NCBI GenBank assembly: GCA_963931495.1
Contig: OZ007020.1
Location: forward strand, 720,001 to 752,000
Length of the DNA: 32,000 nt
Origin: an uncultured Alphaproteobacteria bacterium
GTDB taxonomy: Bacteria > Pseudomonadota > Alphaproteobacteria > Rs-D84
Direction: 5' to 3'
Under the pieces are notes generated by a model. It was not told the DNA's origin. It was given only the letters and a program-made list of their open reading frames with translations, and made no database searches. Below are positions 3,348 to 28,130 of this stretch, piece by piece (the first letter of the stretch is position 1; the number at the start of each line of letters is the position of its first letter). The translations under genes and the position numbers were made by a program.

Positions 3348-3430
3348 ATTTAACCCCTTTTTAGATTTTTATTTCTGGTGCATTTTATAACAATGTTTTT
3401 ATAAAAGCAAATGATTGTGATTGTTTATAA

Positions 3431-3453
3431 CAAAAACGGGGCAAATGCCCCGT
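3431..3453 (-). terminator. Rho-independent terminator after csp
   Basis: Stem ACGGGGC (3436-3442) / GCCCCGT (3447-3453), with a T5 run on the minus strand (A-run 3432-3436 on plus). Confidence 0.6.
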
Positions 3454-5375: not shown

Positions 5376-6854
5376 TTATTTCATTATCGGGAACAGAACC
5401 ACATCACGCAACGTTGGTTGGTCAAAGATTATGCTGGCCAACCGGTCAACCCCCATGCCGACACCTGAAATTGGCGGAAATCCATGTTCCATCGCACGCA
5501 CGAAATCGTTATCAGGATTAAATGCTTCTTCATCACCATCAGCAATATTTTTTGCCTGTTCTTCAAATGCAGCCAACTGTTGGATTGGGTTAACCAGTTC
5601 TGAATATCCCTTGCATAATTCGGCGCCACATACCAATAATTGATACATATCAATGCGACGTTCGTCGTCATCATTACGACGCGCCAGTGGCACCATATAC
5701 GCCGGATAATTATACAAGAATGTCGGATTTACGATACTGTCACGTATTTTACGCTTGTACACATAATCAACCAATGCCGGCAAAGATTTCAAATCTTCTA
5801 ATTCAGATTCTGGGAACATTCCTGCTGACACCAATTTATTACGCAATTCGTCCACATTTTCAAAATCTAATATATTACAGCCAAAAAATTCATTCATCTT
5901 GGCGGTATAGTCAATCATTTCATATTTTGAAAAGTCCAGTTTTGTTCCCTGGTATTCAATTTGTAAAGTTCCACGGCATTTTTGTAACAAATATTGGATT
6001 AAATCCCATGTAAATTGAATATTCTTGTGGAAATCCCAATATGCCGCATACCATTCAACCATTGTGAATTCTTGCAAATGCATTGCATCCATGCCTTCGT
6101 TTCGGAAATCCTTGGCCACTTCGTATACGCGGTCAAATCCGGCACCAATTGCTTCCTTTAAGAATAATTCCGGTGAAATACGCAATTGGAAATCTGTGTT
6201 CAGTGCATTATGATGCGTTGTAAAAGGACGCGCCGCCGCACCACTGGCGATATTTTGCATAATTGGCGTTTCTATTTCCAGAAAACCGTGTTCATTCATA
6301 AAATCACGCCAATATTGTGTCATCTGGAACCGCCCCAGCAACGCCCGACGCGTTTCAGGATTAGATATAATATCCAGATAACGTTGGCGATATTTTGTTT
6401 CCATATCGGTTAAACCATGGAACTTTTCTGGCAACGGGCGCAATGCCTTGGCCAAAATATCATAATGCTTTACCCGCACTGTCAATTCACCCGCTGTTGT
6501 ATGATATAATTCGCCATCAACACCGATAAAATCACCCATATCAACATTGGATTTCATAAACTTATAGTCTTCTTCGCCAATTTCTTCGCGCGACATAGAA
6601 AACTGGATTTCACCATTAATGTCGTATATGCGGCCAAACATTAATTTGCCCAACCAACGCAATGCTGTGACGCGCCCGGCCAGGCGCACATGTGTACCAT
6701 CTGGTAATTCGCGTGCCGCGGCAATTGTATGTGTGCGTTCATATTTGTCTTTCCAAACAACACCGTCGCGTACACGAATATTTTCTGCTTTTTGCAGACG
6801 TGCCTGTAATTCGTTTGTTGATAACGTTGTTGTGTTGTTTGCGTTGTCAGACAT
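5376..6854 (-). CDS. lysS: Lysine--tRNA ligase, class II
   Basis: 492 aa. N-terminal OB-fold anticodon-binding region plus class II motifs (FLEIETP, FRNEG, GxGxGxDR-type GVGMGVDRL). Confidence 0.95.
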   Translation of the reverse strand: MSDNANNTTTLSTNELQARLQKAENIRVRDGVVWKDKYERTHTIAAARELPDGTHVRLAGRVTALRWLGKLMFGRIYDINGEIQFSMSREEIGEEDYKFMKSNVDMGDFIGVDGELYHTTAGELTVRVKHYDILAKALRPLPEKFHGLTDMETKYRQRYLDIISNPETRRALLGRFQMTQYWRDFMNEHGFLEIETPIMQNIASGAAARPFTTHHNALNTDFQLRISPELFLKEAIGAGFDRVYEVAKDFRNEGMDAMHLQEFTMVEWYAAYWDFHKNIQFTWDLIQYLLQKCRGTLQIEYQGTKLDFSKYEMIDYTAKMNEFFGCNILDFENVDELRNKLVSAGMFPESELEDLKSLPALVDYVYKRKIRDSIVNPTFLYNYPAYMVPLARRNDDDERRIDMYQLLVCGAELCKGYSELVNPIQQLAAFEEQAKNIADGDEEAFNPDNDFVRAMEHGFPPISGVGMGVDRLASIIFDQPTLRDVVLFPIMK

Positions 6855-18469: not shown

Positions 18470-18499
18470 TTTTCTTACTCCCTGTGTTTTTGGTTAAAC

Positions 18500-18720
18500 A
18501 AAAAACCACCAATCTGTTGGTGGTCGGGATGTTAGAAAAATCATATACCTTGATGATCCTGTGGCTTTTAAGGACGCATGCCCTTTGTTGCATGAACCAC
18601 AGCATCCCGACCAGACGTCGGGACACGACACAATATGTGTCATAACGTTAACGATGTGTTTCACACACCGAAGGTATAAGGGATTTTCTAAGTCCCGAAC
18701 CCACAAACCATGCGGATTCA
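18500..18720 (-). promoter_or_regulatory. Structured 5' leader RNA copy L1 ending in an intrinsic terminator (candidate riboswitch/attenuator)
   Basis: Paralogous to 23395-23618 and 26990-27205. GAAA-loop hairpin at 18680-18696 and CATCGTTA at 18649-18656. The proximal arm (18617-18622) and the distal arm (18523-18531) both pair with the middle segment (18603-18611). Terminator CCACC/GGTGG plus T6 (A-run 18500-18505 on plus). Confidence 0.6.
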
Positions 18721-18725
18721 TTTTG

Positions 18726-18783: not shown

Positions 18784-19161
18784 ATGAAACATTTAACCGA
18801 TACAGATATTAAAAATATGCTTGGGGATGAATTCATTCCTGATAATAACGATGTGCGGCGCACTGTGCGTGGCGAATTGCACTTGGCGCGTCGTATACCC
18901 AAAACAACACATGTGCCCCAGCATCTGGTATTGGATCTGCATCACAATACCGAAGACCAGGCATGGGATAAAATTATGCGCGTTGCCACATCCGGCGCAC
19001 GCACCGCAACAATCATCACGGGGGCCAGTGGAATATTAAAAATAAAATTTCAACAATGGGCGCATGACAGTATCTTGGCGCCATATATCGTGTCTGTCAC
19101 ACCAATTAATAACGGCAGTTTCGCAGTAAAATTCAAAAAGAAATTAAAATCCGATTTTTAA
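18784..19161 (+). CDS. Smr (small MutS-related) domain protein
   Basis: 125 aa. LVLDLHHNTEDQAW ... TATIITGASGILK ... matches the Smr pattern LDLHG..x..A...G.....IIHGKG.G.L. Confidence 0.75.
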   Translation: MKHLTDTDIKNMLGDEFIPDNNDVRRTVRGELHLARRIPKTTHVPQHLVLDLHHNTEDQAWDKIMRVATSGARTATIITGASGILKIKFQQWAHDSILAPYIVSVTPINNGSFAVKFKKKLKSDF

Positions 19162-20304
19162 TAATATACTGACCGTGTGCGCCATATATTCACTGCGTGC
19201 ATCAATACGGTAATTTATGCCTGCATTAAAATATGGACTGAAAAATGTTACACCAACCGCCCCGTCCAGCATTGTACGATGCGGGGCATCAATCGGGATG
19301 GTATACGAATTTCCACCATTTAAGTTAACATGTACCCCCGGTGTGCCATTGCTGATGACATCATATCCGCCACCAATGTTAATCGCCGGGCGTATAACAA
19401 AATCAGAACCAATAAAATCGTATCCAATGTCTATACCGGCGCCGGCCGTCAGCATGTTGTACCACCATTTATCAAATGACTGTAATACTGAATCAGTATA
19501 TGCATCTGTCATTATCCGCGAATATCGTATACTAATTTGTGGCACAATTGATATGTTGTTGCGCGCCAAGCGAATACCTGTATTAAATTGACCGGCGAAA
19601 AAATTCGTATCGTATGTGCCATTGTCGTTAACTAATGAAATTATTTTTTCAATTGCCCAACTGGTATGCCCAGCATTCAACCCAAAATTTATAAACAGCC
19701 CATTTTGCCCCAGGTATTCCCCAAATAACGTCAAACTGTTACCGATGGCATCAGAATAAACACGTGTATCATGCGTATCTGTCATTGTGCGTGTGTATGC
19801 TGCACCGAACAGTAATCCATCTGTGACAAACATCTTGGCATTAATTGTAACCCCAGTATTACGTGTTTTGAACGCAGAATTCATCCCAGAATCATATGTG
19901 GCAAACGAACCGAACACATGGCCGTCCAGCACCAGACGACGCGTATCATCACAACTGATATGGCCGGCAACACACTCATCACGTCGTGCCAGCAACGGCA
20001 TGCCAATGACAGAAAAAGATTGATCCAAATGATTATTTATTTCAAACAGCGCAACTGATGTACTGTTGAACCCCAGCGTTGATATGGCATCTGAAAATTC
20101 TGCGACATCCGTTGTTCGTGTTCCATGTACGTATGACGCGACATCTGAACTGGGGCTGATATAGCCTGAATTGCCCAACCATGCATTGGCAACATCGTCC
20201 AGATACTTGGCATCGCCAAATAATCCGCCAAACGAATAATTTGCCGGCGCGCCCCATGCGGCACCACAAAATATCAACATGCAAAATCGTAAAATATTTT
20301 TCAT
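19144..20304 (-). CDS. Outer-membrane beta-barrel protein (autotransporter-type translocator-like)
   Basis: Start re-picked at MKNILRFCMLIFCGAAWGA (signal peptide). Alternating beta-strand pattern and a C-terminal aromatic residue (..LLKIGF). Overlaps the smr 3' end by 18 nt (convergent). Confidence 0.6.
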   Translation of the reverse strand: MKNILRFCMLIFCGAAWGAPANYSFGGLFGDAKYLDDVANAWLGNSGYISPSSDVASYVHGTRTTDVAEFSDAISTLGFNSTSVALFEINNHLDQSFSVIGMPLLARRDECVAGHISCDDTRRLVLDGHVFGSFATYDSGMNSAFKTRNTGVTINAKMFVTDGLLFGAAYTRTMTDTHDTRVYSDAIGNSLTLFGEYLGQNGLFINFGLNAGHTSWAIEKIISLVNDNGTYDTNFFAGQFNTGIRLARNNISIVPQISIRYSRIMTDAYTDSVLQSFDKWWYNMLTAGAGIDIGYDFIGSDFVIRPAINIGGGYDVISNGTPGVHVNLNGGNSYTIPIDAPHRTMLDGAVGVTFFSPYFNAGINYRIDARSEYMAHTVSILLKIGF

Positions 20305-20369
20305 GACTCGCCCTGTTTTTTGTTTATAATATGTGCCACAAGGATAAATTTTAACAGGAACCATTTACT

Positions 20370-21960: not shown

Positions 21961-22037
21961 GCGCCCATGGCTCAATTGGATAGAGCATCTGACTACGGAT
22001 CAGAAGGTTGAGGGTTCGAATCCTTCTGGGCGCGCCA
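21961..22037 (+). tRNA. tRNA-Arg (anticodon ACG), CCA encoded
   Basis: Hand-folded: acceptor GCGCCCA/TGGGCGC, D arm GCTC/GAGC, anticodon arm TCTGA-CTACGGA-TCAGA, T arm GAGGG-TTCGAAT-CCTTC, then G-CCA. Confidence 0.92.
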
Positions 22038-22062
22038 GGAATTTAACCGCCAGAAACGGCGG
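22028..22062 (+). repeat. attL-like direct repeat (3' end of tRNA-Arg plus its terminator stem)
   Basis: The 35-nt GGGCGCGCCAGGAATTTAACCGCCAGAAACGGCGG is identical to 23279-23313. Confidence 0.7.
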
Positions 22063-22072
22063 TTTAATTTTT
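22045..22072 (+). terminator. Terminator after tRNA-Arg (duplicated at 23296-23325)
   Basis: Stem AACCGCC / GGCGGTT with a 6-nt loop, followed by a T-rich run. Confidence 0.6.
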
Positions 22073-22268
22073 GTGCAAGCCCCAGGATTTGAACCCGAAC
22101 AGAGGGGGCGACAACAAGTAGATTTACCAAACGACAGTGCCGGCAAATCGTCACGATTGCCACGCCACCGACAAAGGCAAAATTGACGAATATATGATGA
22201 ACTGGGCGCGGTATGCAAAATAGATTGCTATTTGGTCTTGTTTGTTGTTAGATTTTATACAGGTGTCC

Positions 22269-22295
22269 GCCCCCGATAAACTGGGGGGCTTTTTT
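22269..22295 (+). terminator. Rho-independent terminator inside the islet
   Basis: Stem GCCCCC (22269-22274) / GGGGGC (22284-22289) plus T6 (22290-22295). The transcript it ends is unidentified. Confidence 0.5.
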
Positions 22296-22297
22296 AT

Positions 22298-22347
22298 TGT
22301 GCAAATTTTGTGCAAAAAATGTGCAAAATTGTGTCAAATTGTGCAAA
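22298..22347 (+). repeat. Five helically phased TGTGCAAA (iteron-like) repeats
   Basis: Copies start at 22298, 22309, 22320, 22330 (variant TGTGTCAAA) and 22340, a spacing of 10-11 bp. A very A-rich stretch follows. Confidence 0.75.
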
Positions 22348-22503
22348 AATATGACATAAAACGCAAAAAAATATCAAAAAAGACAAAAAACTTGACTTAT
22401 AAGTATATAATATGATATACTCTTTTTCAGAGAAAGAGGATATATCCTGCGTTAAGCGTTTTTGCGCAGCCTTTAAGGTGTTCGTATGGTGATTGCCTCT
22501 TTT

Positions 22504-23133
22504 TTATATTTTACAAGTAATAAATCCTAGATTTCTGCCGTCTGTAAAAACTTCGTTGAAACGATCTATTTTCTTGATTTGGTTTAATACTGGGTTAGCC
22601 CCAAGTTCGCGTATCATGCGAAATATCATATTATGTATTTTATGGCATGGCATTTGATGTCTTGAGCATATCAGCAATGACCCGTTATGCGAAAAACGAT
22701 TACGATATTTACGAATTGTATCTATTTCGCGTGAAATTTTTAATAAAGAAACATGGGCTTTCCGATGACTAAATATCTCTTGCAGAGCAGTTGGATATTT
22801 GTCCCAAATAGTTTCGCAATTTTGTGACATAAACAATTTGCTCCAAAAACCGAATGTTAAGCTATCTATTAATTTATTTCTGTCTGTAATATCTTTTTCG
22901 TCATTTAATTTGTCATCTGCACGAACAAAGTCAAAAATCCAATTTTCACCAATATGACGCGATAAAACAGCGTCTATTTTATTGCGTAGAACTATTTCAA
23001 ACTGACTTAAACTTGGATACATGCTTTCGCATAAGCGCACATTAAAAAAATATAACTGATGTGTGTGTGGTTTGTCAGGCGCACCATATTTAGACAAACG
23101 TTGTTCAGACATAAATGGTATTATTGTATCCAT
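22504..23133 (-). CDS. Abi_2 (AbiD/AbiF-like) abortive-infection family protein, HEPN-type
   Basis: 209 aa. YFFNVRLCESMYPSLSQFEIVLRNKI, LTFGFWSKLF and IRKYRNRFSHNGSL (Rx4H HEPN motif) match my recollection of the Abi_2 family. Confidence 0.7.
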   Translation of the reverse strand: MDTIIPFMSEQRLSKYGAPDKPHTHQLYFFNVRLCESMYPSLSQFEIVLRNKIDAVLSRHIGENWIFDFVRADDKLNDEKDITDRNKLIDSLTFGFWSKLFMSQNCETIWDKYPTALQEIFSHRKAHVSLLKISREIDTIRKYRNRFSHNGSLLICSRHQMPCHKIHNMIFRMIRELGANPVLNQIKKIDRFNEVFTDGRNLGFITCKI

Positions 23134-23278
23134 TGTAAAAACCCCATGTATTTTTTATTATACGGTTTTAATCCTGAAATGCAAATAAGTTTTAAGCCGC
23201 TTTTTGCAAACCAAAATTCCAATTTGCCGCCAATTTCTGCACTTCTGACCGGTATTTAGTTCGGAAATCGTCTACTGG

Positions 23279-23313
23279 GGGCGCGCCAGGAATTTAACCG
23301 CCAGAAACGGCGG
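23279..23313 (+). repeat. attR-like direct repeat
   Basis: Identical 35-nt copy of 22028-22062. Confidence 0.7.
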
Positions 23314-23394
23314 GTTATTTTTTGTTCGTGCACATCATTTCAACATCTTTAATCAAATAAAGTTCTTTTTTTTCAATAAGATTATATACGAACC

Positions 23395-23618
23395 ATCCGG
23401 GATGCTGGTTCGGGGCCGTAGAAAGCCCAGTTTATCCGGTGCAAAAGCATCGTTATACATTTGTGGATATTTCGGTGTCTTTTGCACCGTGTTGTCCCCG
23501 ACCTGGGTCGGGGGGCCGTTCGCAATACAACAGGACCATCGGTCCAAAGGCAACGGGAATCAATGATAAACTGATTTTTCTAACCCCCCGACCACCATGC
23601 GCTGACATGGTGTTTTTT
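23395..23618 (+). promoter_or_regulatory. Structured 5' leader RNA copy L2 ending in an intrinsic terminator (candidate riboswitch/attenuator)
   Basis: 5' hairpin GAACCA/TGGTTC. GAAA-loop hairpin at 23413-23428. CATCGTTA at 23448-23455. 10-bp hairpin 23438-23447/23479-23488. Proximal arm CCCCGAC (23496-23502), middle GTCGGGGGG (23507-23515), distal CCCCCCGAC (23584-23592). Terminator CACCATG/CATGGTG plus T6 (23593-23618). Confidence 0.6.
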
Positions 23619-23643
23619 ACATAAATCTGTACGGGGGGCAAAT

Positions 23644-24423
23644 ATGAAAATAATTACTGTTGCGATTATACTTGCTGTGGTTGCGATTGACGCAAATGCA
23701 GCATGGGGACCCAAATATGGTTCCGAAGACAGCTGTATCGTGGAACGCAAAAATGGGCGAAAATTCTATTTCTGTGGTCAATCACAAAGTGAATGCGCGG
23801 GATACAAAGTACTAAAATGGTCAACACAAAAAGCATTTCAAAATGAAAAAAGTTTTACATCAGAATTTGATTCATCACGAACATTTTACTGCTGTAACCC
23901 AGACGGTGGGGCACGTGGCGTTTGGAAAGAAGGAAAATCGTGGTATGTAACAAACGAAGTTGCAACCAAACAACTGGAAAATGGAACATGCAATTATCAC
24001 CGACGCATCAACATATGTGGGGGTGACGAAAGTACAGACTGTACCGTCCCAGATACATGCACAAATGGAACATTTATGCGCAATGACGAATGTGTTACAA
24101 ACTGTCCCGACGGCAGTGTTTTTGAAAGTGAAACATCAAATGTTTGTATAACATGCGAAACCACCGAATTCCAGGGCATTAATAAAGATCAAGAATGTGT
24201 GCAATGCGATCCGGACACAGAATTTTTTGATTTGGAAACCAAAACCTGTGTCGCCAAAGCAGAACTGACACATATTACCAAAGAAATGATGATGCAATGT
24301 CACAAATGCCCAAACAGCGTTTTATTTTATGACTGTTGCAAAATGTTAAGCATGTCTGAATCAGAACGCACCAACATGGAAAATTACGAACAAATAGTAA
24401 ATGATTGCCAGATACGGCAATAA
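23644..24423 (+). CDS. Secreted cysteine-rich protein with furin/EGF-like CxxC repeats (259 aa)
   Basis: Signal peptide MKIITVAIILAVVAIDANA and a GGGGGG Shine-Dalgarno. Repeated Cys spacing: CTVPDTCTNGTF..ECVTNCPDGS..CITCETTEF..ECVQCDPDTEF..TCV. Confidence 0.7.
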   Translation: MKIITVAIILAVVAIDANAAWGPKYGSEDSCIVERKNGRKFYFCGQSQSECAGYKVLKWSTQKAFQNEKSFTSEFDSSRTFYCCNPDGGARGVWKEGKSWYVTNEVATKQLENGTCNYHRRINICGGDESTDCTVPDTCTNGTFMRNDECVTNCPDGSVFESETSNVCITCETTEFQGINKDQECVQCDPDTEFFDLETKTCVAKAELTHITKEMMMQCHKCPNSVLFYDCCKMLSMSESERTNMENYEQIVNDCQIRQ

Positions 24424-26150: not shown

Positions 26151-26171
26151 GTGGTGGATTATAATTGCTTT

Positions 26172-26939
26172 ATGAATGTAAATCAAGCATTTGAAATCTT
26201 GCAACGTGCCGGCGGATTACGCGCGGCACGCATAATCACTGAAAATACACAAAAATTTTCAAAAATAAAAATTTGGTGCATGGCGCGTGCGCTGCGTCGC
26301 GGTGTCCCAGTTGCCAAAATTATTCACCAAAAATGGTTTTATGGCATGCAATTTTACACCAATCGCCATACGCTGGACCCACGACCAGATACAGAAACAT
26401 TGGTTGCGGCGGTAATTTCAGATTATAAAAACAGCCATCCATATGTGCTGGATTTAGGTACCGGAACTGGGTGCATCATCGCGGCAATTGTGGCAAACAT
26501 TGTCGGTGCAAATGGCGTCGGAATTGAACAATCGTATTGTGCGCAACGCGTGGCACGTAAAAATATAAAAAAATTGGGACTGGATACCCGCGTATGTATA
26601 CGACACGGCAATTTTAATTCACCACATATGACGCATGAACGATTTGATGTAATTGTATCTAATCCGCCGTATATTGCATATGGCGATACACGTGTTAATG
26701 ATGGCGCGCGACATGACCCACAACGTGCACTGTATGCCCAGCACGATGGATTGGCGGCATATGAACGAATTGCCCGCAATGCCAAGAACTGGATTTGCCC
26801 AGGTGGAAAAATATATCTGGAAATCGGCGATGGTATGATGCGCAGTGTACGTAAAATATTTACAAACGAATCATGGAAATTTATTCGCAGCGAACGTGAT
26901 TTATCTGGCAAAATTCGCGTATTAGTATTCCAAGTGTAA
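26172..26939 (+). CDS. prmC: Peptide chain release factor N5-glutamine methyltransferase
   Basis: The ATG at 26172 is preferred over the GTG at 26151. LDLGTGTGCI (SAM-binding motif) and VSNPPY (catalytic NPPY). Confidence 0.88.
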   Translation: MNVNQAFEILQRAGGLRAARIITENTQKFSKIKIWCMARALRRGVPVAKIIHQKWFYGMQFYTNRHTLDPRPDTETLVAAVISDYKNSHPYVLDLGTGTGCIIAAIVANIVGANGVGIEQSYCAQRVARKNIKKLGLDTRVCIRHGNFNSPHMTHERFDVIVSNPPYIAYGDTRVNDGARHDPQRALYAQHDGLAAYERIARNAKNWICPGGKIYLEIGDGMMRSVRKIFTNESWKFIRSERDLSGKIRVLVFQV

Positions 26940-26953
26940 TATAATATTTCGTC

Positions 26954-26982
26954 TTGTTTTTAATATTCACGCGGTATGTAAT
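26954..26982 (+). promoter_or_regulatory. Putative sigma70 promoter for leader L3
   Basis: TTGTTT (26954-26959) -N17- TGTAAT (26977-26982). Confidence 0.3.
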
Positions 26983-26989
26983 CCAATTG

Positions 26990-27205
26990 TTAATGGGTGT
27001 TCCATTAATGGGGCGTGGAAACCTCTGCACATGCGTCGGGATACATACCTGTGGCGCGCAACATGCGCCCATTTTAGCGTTGTGTTACGACGATAAAAAA
27101 CTCCTGGCCTTATTTGGTCAGGAGGGTTGTAGAATATCAAATACACAACGCAATTCATGTGATTGTTTCCAACCTCCTGACCACCATAAAAACTGGTGGT
27201 TTTTT
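26990..27205 (+). promoter_or_regulatory. Structured 5' leader RNA copy L3 ending in an intrinsic terminator (candidate riboswitch/attenuator)
   Basis: 5' hairpin ATGG/CCAT. GAAA-loop hairpin at 27010-27025. Proximal arm CTCCTGGCC (27101-27109), middle GGTCAGGAGG (27116-27125), distal CCTCCTGACC (27173-27182). Terminator ACCACC/GGTGGT plus a T-run (27180-27205). Confidence 0.55.
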
Positions 27206-27232
27206 CGTTGTAAAAAAAGTGGGAGTTGGACT

Positions 27233-27619
27233 ATGAAACATAGTATATTTTCTGTTATTGGCGTGGTATCAGTAATTATGTTGCCGTACACGGCATTTGC
27301 CGTCAGTGGTAGCGGTGGCAATATTGATTGGGACGGGGTTGACCATTGCATATCTGGGTGCATAAATTGTTCAGTATACGAAACGGCGTCGTGTTGCATT
27401 GTGTGCAACGATAGCAGTGCGGGCGGCGGTGGTGGAAGCGGATATGCATGCACGTCATATGCCCAATGCCCCAGTATATCCGAACGAATCCTGTATACAG
27501 ACATTGGTTCGGCGGCATCAGTTGGTGATGCAGGGATGGCATCATCAAACAATATATGCTTTGACATAAATGGCATTCAATACTATAAAAAATCGGCTGT
27601 GTCATGCCGTACGGCATGA
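27233..27619 (+). CDS. Secreted cysteine-rich protein (128 aa as written; probably the N-terminal part of a frameshifted longer gene)
   Basis: Start re-picked at MKHSIFSVIGVVSVIMLPYTAFA (signal peptide), with a GGGAG Shine-Dalgarno. CISGCINC..CCIVCND CxxC motifs. The in-frame upstream part of track ORF 26954..27619 covers the leader and terminator and is rejected. Confidence 0.6.
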   Translation: MKHSIFSVIGVVSVIMLPYTAFAVSGSGGNIDWDGVDHCISGCINCSVYETASCCIVCNDSSAGGGGGSGYACTSYAQCPSISERILYTDIGSAASVGDAGMASSNNICFDINGIQYYKKSAVSCRTA

Positions 27620-28103
27620 CACAAAGGTAAAATATACAATACATGGGTGCAGTGACATCGTATTTTACGAATGCCTGTATAACCGAACCACACCATCCAC
27701 CGGTAATTGCGATGAATCAACATGCGTGCCCGATGCATGGGAATTGATAACAAACGGTTCAACCAAGGCTGTCCAGGCCAGAACCCATCGTGGTTGCAAT
27801 AATGCGGGTCAATGTGTGGAAACACTAAACCGCCAGGTACGCTGTCCCACAGGATATTGGGGATTACCAAATATAAACTTTTCCGACGCAATTACCGCAT
27901 GGTGCGAAAAATGCCCATCCCATGCATCGGGCACGCAAACAACATCCGGTCCGGGCGATATTGCCTCAGGCGGACAGGTTGTTGGCGGCGGAACAGCGGT
28001 GGGTACCGTTCCAATCACAGAATGTTTTGTGCCCGCCGGCAATGGTGATTCTGACGAGTCTGGCACATACGTATGGACACAAAATTGTTACTATGCAAAT
28101 TAA
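27570..28103 (+). CDS. Cysteine-rich protein lacking its own signal peptide (CPTGY / GTYV module); likely the +1-frame continuation of 27233..27619
   Basis: RCPTGYWG, CEKCP and ECFVPAG..DESGTYVWTQNCYY are homologous to the C-terminus of ORF 17751..18038. It overlaps the upstream ORF in the region of an A6 run (27587-27592). Confidence 0.5.
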   Translation: MAFNTIKNRLCHAVRHDTKVKYTIHGCSDIVFYECLYNRTTPSTGNCDESTCVPDAWELITNGSTKAVQARTHRGCNNAGQCVETLNRQVRCPTGYWGLPNINFSDAITAWCEKCPSHASGTQTTSGPGDIASGGQVVGGGTAVGTVPITECFVPAGNGDSDESGTYVWTQNCYYAN

Positions 28104-28130
28104 AAAACGGGGCAATGCCCCGTTTTTTTT
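28102..28130. terminator. Bidirectional terminator shared by the Cys-rich locus and groEL
   Basis: Stem ACGGGGC (28107-28113) / GCCCCGT (28117-28123), with A6 before and T8 after. The T-run overlaps the groEL stop codon. Confidence 0.7.

Follow-up and report, generated by a model that had tools for sequence, protein, structure and literature searches.

A candidate C4-type leader RNA family with a probable attenuator role upstream of Cys-rich protein genes in uncultured Alphaproteobacteria

C4-type antisense RNAs are regulators of phage immunity and also occur as orphan small RNAs in a few Gammaproteobacteria. In Rfam they are represented by the C4 model (RF01695, gathering threshold 45 bits), which describes C4 of the immI regions of phages P1 and P7, and by the c4-a1b1 model (RF03163, 46.7 bits), both belonging to clan CL00128. 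The record of phage P1 reads, in order, promoter, a1 (TTGACAG), b1 (GTTAGTGC), the 77-nt c4, a2, b2 at the Shine-Dalgarno sequence, and icd. The c4 RNA starts with GGU and ends with CCACC; its last junction strand contains a' CUGUCAAC (CUGUCAA-C), and its second hairpin displays b' in the loop. The Rfam c4-a1b1 element on phage P1 consists of two directly adjoining hairpins, the second of which has 4 bp and a loop that holds a1. C4 is cut from its precursor by RNase P at the GGW motif at the 5' end of the closing helix, and a' and b' determine the target specificity (PMC5320573). In Acinetobacter baumannii, multi-copy chromosomal C4-like RNAs that differ in a' have been described (PMC5320573). 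Here we analyse a stretch of 32,000 nucleotides from an uncultured alphaproteobacterium of the Rs-D84 lineage (assembly GCA_963931495.1, contig OZ007020.1, positions 720,001 to 752,000), referred to below as the window, and in it the region 26954-27232, which holds a leader named L3 with two sister copies, L1 and L2. We consider it rather probable that the three are a cis-encoded variant of C4-type RNAs, built on the plan of the P1/P7 immI region and acting as a transcription attenuator.

The L3 region is intergenic and separates a PrmC/HemK-like methyltransferase gene (26151-26939) from a small open reading frame (ORF) that starts with the ATG at 27233. From 5' to 3' the leader, about 230 nt long, comprises a first hairpin (P0), a small hairpin displaying a1, the b1 segment, a spacer of variable length and sequence, a proximal arm, and a C4-like three-way junction (Table 1). 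The phage P1 c4-a1b1 layout corresponds to the P0 hairpin followed by the a1 hairpin, with b1 located just 3' of it. By inspection, the c4 closing helix of phage P1 has a possible upstream partner for its 5' strand, UUACGCCC, comparable to the proximal arm of the leaders. In contrast to phage P1, the leaders have a terminator whose 5' half is made up of the RCC tail together with the final four bases of the closing helix, about 25-45 nt before the ribosome-binding site (RBS). In L3 this is a G+C-rich stem-loop directly followed by a T-run, that is, an intrinsic (Rho-independent) terminator, and its stem shares 4 nt (GACC) with the distal arm. The original prediction had recognised this competition for nucleotides but set the overlap at 3 nt, one less than the terminator scan gives. 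A CTTG...TAtAAT pair occupies the equivalent position in the family alignment and matches the promoter-like hexamers of L3, which a consensus promoter scan did not call. The predicted fold of L3 is more stable than that of 200 shuffled sequences (z = -5.3), and the z-scores of the three leaders against shuffled sequence range from -4.7 to -8.0.

Table 1. Parts of leader L3 and of its sister copies L2 and L1 in the window.
Feature	Position	Strand	Remarks
L3 promoter-like hexamers	26954-26982	+	putative; -35 TTGTTT 26954-26959, 17-nt spacer, -10 TGTAAT 26977-26982
L3 P0 hairpin (TTAATGG / GTGT / TCCATTAA)	26990-27008	+	first hairpin of the a1b1-like 5' element
L3 a1 hairpin (GGGG...CCTC), 4 bp	27010-27025	+	loop holds a1 = TGGAAAC, 27016-27022; the GAAA-loop hairpin of the original prediction
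L3 b1 = CACATG	27028-27033	+	complementary to b' CATGTG in the P3 loop
L3 variable spacer	27033-27093	+	predicted folds: long hairpin GCGTCG...CGACGA, apical GGCGCGC/GCGCC 27053-27069
L3 proximal arm CTCCTGGCC	27101-27109	+	alternative partner of the switch; 9 bp with 27116-27124, one G-U
L3 switch segment GGTCAGGAGG	27116-27125	+	5' strand of P1, the helix that closes the C4-like three-way junction; begins GGW
L3 P2 hairpin (GTTGT...ACAAC)	27126-27149	+	AUA/AAAUA loop conserved; sRNA-Xcc1 model and family alignments
L3 P3 hairpin (GCAATT...GATTGT)	27150-27166	+	holds b' = CATGTG, 27156-27161
L3 a' = GTTTCCA (27165-27171) plus A	27165-27172	+	P3-to-P1 junction strand; core of TTTCCAAC (27166-27173) of the original prediction
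L3 distal arm CCTCCTGACC	27173-27182	+	3' strand of the closing helix; 10 Watson-Crick bp with 27116-27125
L3 ACCA tail	27183-27186	+	R-C-C directly 3' of the closing helix, like the tail of a tRNA acceptor stem
L3 intrinsic terminator GACCACCA / TGGTGGTT and T-run TTTTCGTTGT	27179-27205	+	terminator scan: stem 27179-27201, 8 bp, 7-nt loop
L3 Shine-Dalgarno and start codon	27221-27235	+	GGGAG 27221-27225, ATG 27233 of the downstream gene; from sequence
L3 downstream gene	27233-27619	+	ORF, 128 aa, signal-peptide-like N-terminus, 10 Cys
L2 leader	23388-23621	+	a1 23419-23425, b1 23428-23436, proximal arm 23495-23503, switch 23506-23515, a' 23576-23582, distal arm 23584-23593, terminator 23590-23614
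L2 downstream gene	23644-24423	+	
L1 leader	about 18498-18721	-	a1 18684-18690, b1 18671-18678, proximal arm 18617-18624, switch 18603-18612, a' 18533-18539, distal arm 18522-18531, terminator 18504-18525
L1 downstream gene	18469-18056	-	

The evidence for a conserved structure comes from a family of such leaders. A first scan with the pattern TTTCYAACNNCCNGACCACCA, applied to one genome per species, yielded 113 loci, 64 of which carry GGTGG within 25 nt downstream, as the terminator stem predicts (66 sites when L1 and L3 of the window are included). From these loci 63 full-length leaders were aligned (alignment A2), and a hidden Markov model (HMM) built from A2 brought up additional copies in these loci that the pattern had missed. 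Metagenome contigs were scanned independently with a second pattern, confined to the P0 hairpin and the a1 stem, which left the 3' domain unconstrained and added 42 copies. Altogether, the genome scan and nhmmer gave 110 distinct full-length leaders, and 102 distinct 3' domains were collected in alignment A3. Most leaders originate from metagenome-assembled genomes labelled uncultured Alphaproteobacteria, Ca. Enterousia or Rickettsiales; others were found in Microvirga and in a Rickettsia endosymbiont.

Both helices that compete for the switch segment are kept by compensatory change. Across A3 (n = 102), 96.4% of the cells of the switch:distal helix are paired, with 5 of its 10 pairs changed on both sides, and the respective values for the proximal:switch helix are 92.4% and 5 of 8. 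The terminator stem is paired in 98.7% and shows A-U to G-C exchanges within the family, as in ACCGCC/GGCGGT. None of 500 shuffles reached the observed pairing or covariation score, either for switch:distal alone or for the proximal helix and terminator counted together; this is a control and not a probability. When the partner strand was shifted by 1-3 columns, pairing fell to only 25-60%. In the variant GGUUGGAGG/CCUCCAACC the proximal arm has changed as well, to CCCCCAACC. The closing helix begins with GGU in nearly all copies (A3 column 54, G in 83/102; column 55, G in 102/102; column 56, U in 97/102). ACC or GCC follows it on the 3' side in copies ascertained by the 5' pattern, and CC-R-CC is likewise kept in copies ascertained independently of the tail region. 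In the 5' element, all nine pairs of P0 are changed on both sides somewhere in A2, and the a1 hairpin stem is 91% paired, its fourth pair covarying between A-U (31) and G-C (20).

These results bear out the core of the original prediction, which had been drawn from the letters of the window. Every string it quoted was recovered in place, the proximal arm does form 9 bp with one G-U pair and the distal arm 10 bp, and the comparison of L1, L2 and L3 shows that all variable positions of both helices change compensatorily or to G-U. The artefact it had named as fatal, pairs arising from shared repeats or low complexity, is ruled out by the covariation. The switch motif and its inverted partner occur 4 times, with 0.47 occurrences expected. 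A wider form of the same doubt holds that the copies are non-functional, being repeats, mobile-element remnants or products of chance complementarity in low-complexity G/C runs. The arms are indeed purine- and pyrimidine-rich (GGGGGG/CCCCCC in L2), the copies adjoin fast-evolving genes, and L2 adjoins an apparently integrated island. Conservation across many genera, compensatory changes in six helices or pairings, the strongly negative fold z-scores, the fixed position and orientation before genes, and the lack of flanking terminal repeats at the leader copies nevertheless make this explanation hardly credible.

The leader contains two further, long-range pairings that the original prediction had not recognised. 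It had listed the GAAA-loop hairpin and TTTCCAAC as mere retained motifs. Both are retained in L3, as are the two small hairpins, the second of which spans 27150-27166; the two listed motifs, moreover, pair with each other and supply the strands of the first pairing. When the heptamer immediately upstream of the 'AC' before the distal arm (a') was compared with the loop of the small 5' hairpin (a1), the two were perfectly complementary over 7 bp in 93 of 101 leaders and in at least 12 allele pairs, including UAGAAAA/UUUUCUA, UGGAAAC/GUUUCCA, UGAGAAC/GUUCUCA, UCGAAAC/GUUUCGA, UAACGAC/GUCGUUA, UGAUGAC/GUCAUCA and UGACUAC/GUAGUCA. Own pairs average 6.91 of 7 matches, compared with 5.97 for the other alleles that served as mismatched control. 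In L3 the pair is TGGAAAC with GTTTCCA. The second pairing, b1:b', joins the segment right after the a1 hairpin with the loop and 3' side of the second small hairpin (CACATG with CATGTG in L3). Its longest perfect Watson-Crick stretch has a mean of 7.7 nt in own pairs and 4.2 nt in mismatched copies and reaches at least 6 nt in 95 of 101 leaders, with 68 different alleles. RNAalifold and all three minimum free energy (MFE) folds pair the 5' GAAA-loop region with TTTCYAAC. The MFE and RNAalifold structures consist of this long-range helix, the proximal hairpin and the terminator, so the switch has more than two competing helices. Since the a and b pairings fit either of the two folds considered below, nested in one and as pseudoknots in the other, their covariation is neutral as to the fold they serve.

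The variability of a and b also bears on whether the leaders could be orphan riboswitches, with the three-way junction and the loop-junction pseudoknot forming an aptamer for a small molecule or ion, and the ligand stabilising the closing helix and preventing termination. A large, conserved, covarying structure placed before a terminator whose 5' strand overlaps the closing helix would suit such a device. So would the conserved unpaired bases in the junction and internal loops (AUA, AAAG, UUUCYAAC), and default-off thermodynamics would fit an ON switch. However, the strands of the would-be pocket, a' and b', are hypervariable and always matched by a1 and b1, which fits RNA-RNA specificity better; the secreted Cys-rich proteins encoded by the regulated genes form 23 unrelated clusters that lack a metabolic theme; and the architecture equals that of a known antisense RNA module. 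We therefore regard a riboswitch as quite improbable.

In the attenuator reading that we prefer, two mutually exclusive folds would decide the fate of the transcript. In fold II, a1b1 would pair with b'a', the switch would be held in the proximal hairpin, and the terminator would form and stop transcription. In fold I, the small hairpins would stay local and the switch:distal closing helix would form, acting as an antiterminator: by taking GACC from the terminator stem it would let the polymerase read through into the gene. The default state would presumably be off, and RNase P might cut the transcript at GGW. The most economical candidate for a trigger would be a cognate processed C4-like RNA, or another factor, that binds the nascent a1b1. 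In a bolder version, the processed C4-like RNA would bind in trans to a1/b1 of nascent transcripts of the same locus and block the terminator fold, resulting in gene-by-gene, bistable positive feedback. Specificity would then stem from the genome-unique a/b combination, and each secreted Cys-rich gene would possess a private RNA switch. We put this version forward as a speculation and think it distinctly unlikely. If it were true, surface proteins would be switched bistably, in the manner of phase variation but with the DNA unchanged.

A downstream ORF is present for 97 of the 110 leaders, at a median distance of 25 nt between leader end and start codon. This leaves no room for a separate promoter, so the genes appear to depend on read-through for expression. 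The downstream ORFs have a median of 183 aa and 14 Cys; at least 6 Cys are present in 79 of 91 complete ORFs, and 70 of 97 have a signal-peptide-like N-terminus. In the window, the ORFs after L1, L2 and L3 are all Cys-rich, each with a signal-peptide-like start, and the leaders sit between housekeeping genes, before these presumably secreted proteins. By BLAST the downstream proteins form the 23 clusters mentioned above, and they gave no match to Pfam or NCBIfam and no meaningful match to PHROG. Some leaders precede other types of protein, so the regulon is not exclusively one of Cys-rich proteins: a few leaders (L043, L025 and L160) precede secreted proteins that contain no cysteine and share a ...TTAYVKG / SKAYVDTK motif, two leaders (L022 and L037) precede glycosyltransferase-like proteins, and those of Microvirga precede a small membrane protein or an XRE-like regulator.

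Several results weigh against the attenuator reading. In L1 and L3 the terminator state is the more stable one by 13-14 kcal/mol in nested energy, with the pseudoknot energy left out: the nested MFE, corresponding to fold II, is -83.7 kcal/mol for L3 and -92.1 kcal/mol for L1, and with the closing helix forced the values are -70.2 and -78.4 kcal/mol, respectively. As pseudoknot energy lies outside the model, the read-through state is one whose existence we infer. The 63 sequences of A2 were picked by a pattern that fixes 17 of 21 bases across a', the distal arm and ACCA, and the sequences are related to one another, the covariation counts being uncorrected for phylogeny. A clear T-run is missing from the leaders of Microvirga and of the Rickettsia endosymbiont and from the phage member; hence, termination control is not universal, and the fusion to a terminator may be specific to the gut lineages. 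Neither the C4 nor the c4-a1b1 model matched L1-L3 at E <= 10 or eight leader loci at E <= 1. P1-type a2/b2 sites are not enriched, the stretch shared between own a1b1 and the downstream 65 nt averaging 5.4 nt compared with 5.2 nt in the control, so the phage P1 logic of RBS repression through a2/b2 is not general. The complementarity of the RBS region to a' is weakly above control (5.2 versus 4.8 of 7).

The last two results also bear on the alternative that the elements are free-standing genes of trans-acting small RNAs (sRNAs) of the C4 or sRNA-Xcc1 type, with the downstream gene being a target or a mere neighbour and read-through being unregulated. An RNA of about 90-230 nt, ending at the terminator and processed by RNase P, would then repress by pairing, as C4 does at a2/b2. 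The architecture and the GGW/RCC hallmarks match C4, a strong terminator lies directly 3' of the RNA, and the phage relative L319, described below, has an a2 at the RBS of rha. In a few chromosomal copies (L021, L038, L042 and L061) UUAGAAAAU is present at the RBS. Likewise, the RBS region is more complementary to its own a' plus distal strand (-12.1 kcal/mol) than to that of other alleles (-10.1) or than shuffled tails are (-8.1); an early impression that the RBS covaries with the distal arm survived only as this weak effect. However, a2/b2-like sites are not enriched overall, the short median distance to the gene suggests read-through, and a conserved proximal arm and an overlap with the terminator would be superfluous for a purely trans-acting RNA. 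This alternative is, in our judgement, unlikely.

The Rfam C4 models do not match the leaders; the case for their homology to C4 is architectural and draws on one bridging phage element. The C4 model does detect c4 of phage P1 (68.8 bits) and a locus on a viral contig, L270 (46.2 bits), whose C4 consensus plan comprises the closing helix, two hairpins, a junction ending in ...UUUGCCAAC, the 3' strand of the closing helix, and CCACC. The bridging element is L319, from an IMG/VR viral contig, which matches the leader HMM with E = 1e-11, carries GGTTTCTAACCTCCCGACCACCA and is devoid of a T-run. Its a1 and a2 are identical (UAGAAAC), and a2 adjoins the Shine-Dalgarno sequence of a Phage_pRha (Rha regulator) gene. 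As judged from its sequence, L319 bridges the phage C4-type elements and the chromosomal leaders. None of the window copies lies in a prophage immunity context, before icd/ant or another antirepressor gene; only L319 does.

The sRNA-Xcc1 model scores the leaders below its gathering threshold of 53 bits (L3, 31.8; L2, 35.6; other leaders, 30.3-38). In a permissive Rfam search it gave no match to L1, and it has no match on phage P1 c4 at E <= 10. At gathering thresholds, Rfam reported only two tRNAs in the window, and only tRNA and 5S in a wider set that includes 18 leader loci. Neither the sRNA-Xcc1 consensus, compared with plasmids by BLAST, nor the L270 C4 region, compared with phages, gave a match. 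The pattern GGCCGGGG...CCCCGGCCACC on viral contigs returned mostly chance matches in coding sequence; of ten such loci that were checked, none reached the sRNA-Xcc1 threshold, and one is the C4 RNA of L270. A literature search found no described motif of this kind for these bacteria. Other identities were rejected: a tRNA- or tmRNA-like gene, suggested by the GACC-ACCA end, as two ordinary tRNAs are all that ARAGORN reports; attenuation of the ANTAR, T-box or leader-peptide type, as twin hexaloops, a specifier or T-box sequence and a conserved small ORF are all absent; and an origin from integron cassettes, as attC-like repeats are lacking and the copies lie between housekeeping genes.

Elements that resemble parts of the leader were noticed elsewhere. 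At 6332-6402 (minus strand) of locus L022 there is a lone three-way junction, GGCCGGGGUG...CACCCCGGCC, followed by GCU; it matches only the 3' half of the leader HMM, with no a1b1 in the match, U-A pairs of the closing helix are replaced by C-G when it is compared with the leaders, and it may be a free-standing relative of the sRNA-Xcc1 type. Two viral contigs (L243 and L246) carry GGCCGGGG...CCCCGGCCACC elements that enclose two hairpins and are followed, after about 10 nt, by AAGGAG and an ATG. Their appearance is that of C4/sRNA-Xcc1-like folds serving as translational leaders, and no Rfam family matches them at gathering score. On six further viral contigs (L245, L248, L252, L253, L257 and L291) a conserved GGCCGGGGGAGCC...CGCCCCGGCCACCCCCG lies between two genes that are both encoded on the strand opposite to it, and is antisense to the 5' region of one of them. 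It resembles a cis-antisense arrangement, and no Rfam identification was obtained at gathering level.

Within the family, two main subtypes are distinguished, and spacer length and sequence differ between them. The one represented by L1 and L2 has the loop UAGAAA, the junction UUUCUAAC and the switch GGUCGGGNNG. The other, to which L3 belongs, has the loop UGGAAAC, the junction GUUUCCAAC and the switch GGUCAGGAGG, and occurs in many genomes and metagenomes. L3 is, by its sequence, a normal member of a widespread second subtype and not an eroded lone copy. The original prediction, in calling L3 the most diverged copy and the source of most of the covariation evidence, was right for the window; among the collected leaders L3 is not a lone divergent copy, nor does most of the evidence for the family as a whole come from it. 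Three leader copies lie in the window, and up to five were recovered per assembly. Paralogues within one genome or assembly each have a unique a/b combination, and orthologues in related assemblies share b alleles.

The neighbourhood of the three copies shows additional features. Upstream of L2, next to a tRNA-Arg(ACG) gene (21961-22037), about 1.25 kb is flanked by two copies of a 47-nt direct repeat (22028-22074 / 23279-23325, 96% identical) and contains one ORF (22504-23133, minus strand) that has a sub-threshold match to Abi_2. From its sequence, the stretch 21961-23325 looks like a small island integrated at the 3' end of the tRNA gene; its right end is about 60 nt upstream of the L2 leader. 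The gene after L3 shares 50 nt with a second Cys-rich ORF in a different frame (27570-28103), and immediately behind the gene after L1 lies another Cys-rich ORF (18053-17751). These second ORFs resemble each other at the C-terminus (DEFGTYVYESVC and DESGTYVWTQNC), and the ORF pairs may be two-gene operons or a frameshifted single gene. A 406-aa protein with an autotransporter beta-domain (Pfam E = 5e-21) is encoded at 19144-20364 on the minus strand and adjoins the L1 unit; together with the Cys-rich secreted proteins it suggests a region rich in surface proteins. Two hairpins, AAAAACGGGGCAAATGCCCCGT (3414-3453) and AAAAAACGGGGCAATGCCCCGT (28084-28123), are 70% identical over 40 nt. Both adjoin the ends of convergent genes, with groEL beside one of the two, and they probably act as bidirectional terminators of the ordinary kind.

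The C4-type antisense RNA with its a1/b1 sites and the multi-copy chromosomal derivatives in Acinetobacter were already known. New is a lineage that the Rfam C4, c4-a1b1 and sRNA-Xcc1 models do not capture. To judge from sequence features, the C4-type module has probably been fused here to an intrinsic terminator and taken on a leader role; it is multi-copy in uncultured gut Alphaproteobacteria and linked to predicted secreted Cys-rich proteins, and its b-pairing shows an extreme yet matched diversity. The C4 module, including a1/b1, thus appears to be reused many times per genome in uncultured host-associated Alphaproteobacteria, which offers a testable model of an antisense-RNA module turned into a cis-acting attenuator. 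The association points to a regulon of uncharacterised surface or secreted proteins in gut bacteria without cultured representatives. About 110 sequences are now available for a family that current Rfam models miss, and the hypervariable, always matched a/b pairs constitute a natural set of orthogonal RNA-RNA specificities. The sRNA-Xcc1-like 'small RNAs' located before small genes may merit re-examination as leaders.

Among the known systems, C4 is the closest in architecture. The leaders share with it a three-way junction in which a closing helix encloses two hairpins, the GGW start and the RCC after the 3' strand, and the placement of b' (second hairpin loop) and a' (last junction strand, ending in AAC), matched by a1/b1 upstream; in both, the a and b sequences are the variable specificity determinants. 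The differences are also clear: the closing helix of the leaders, with 10 bp, is much shorter than that of C4 with its 16-17 bp, the leaders have an intrinsic terminator joined to the RCC tail and mostly lack a2/b2 sites, and they are multi-copy and chromosomal in Alphaproteobacteria, where they precede secreted Cys-rich proteins and not icd/ant. The group 1 C4-like RNAs of A. baumannii are similarly multi-copy and chromosomal, processed at GGW from longer transcripts and variable in a', but the Rfam C4 motif recognises them, and they have been described as small RNAs and not as terminator-bearing leaders of secreted proteins (PMC5320573). They also differ from the leaders in host phylum and in the genes regulated. 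Among the Rfam models, only that of sRNA-Xcc1 (RF02221), an integron- and prophage-associated RNA of Xanthomonas and Xylella, aligns over the whole length of the leaders' 3' domain. Common to the two are a closing helix of 9 bp (GGYCGGGGG), two hairpins of which the first has an AUACAA internal loop, a junction rich in U, and CCACC. sRNA-Xcc1 has been reported just before small genes (such as symE or a gene for an ORF6N protein) in integron cassettes and an APSE phage, and in multiple copies in Xylella; it differs in being described as an 88-nt trans-acting RNA, and its model contains no 5' a1b1 element. With transcription attenuators the leaders share the principle that one segment alternates between an upstream partner and a downstream partner overlapping the terminator stem. 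Classical attenuators and riboswitches differ in relying on a leader peptide, a T-box specifier, ANTAR twin hexaloops or a known aptamer, none of which was found in the leaders. Unlike in classical attenuators, the sensing step of the leaders appears, from the matched variation of their sequences, to be RNA-RNA pairing through a and b.

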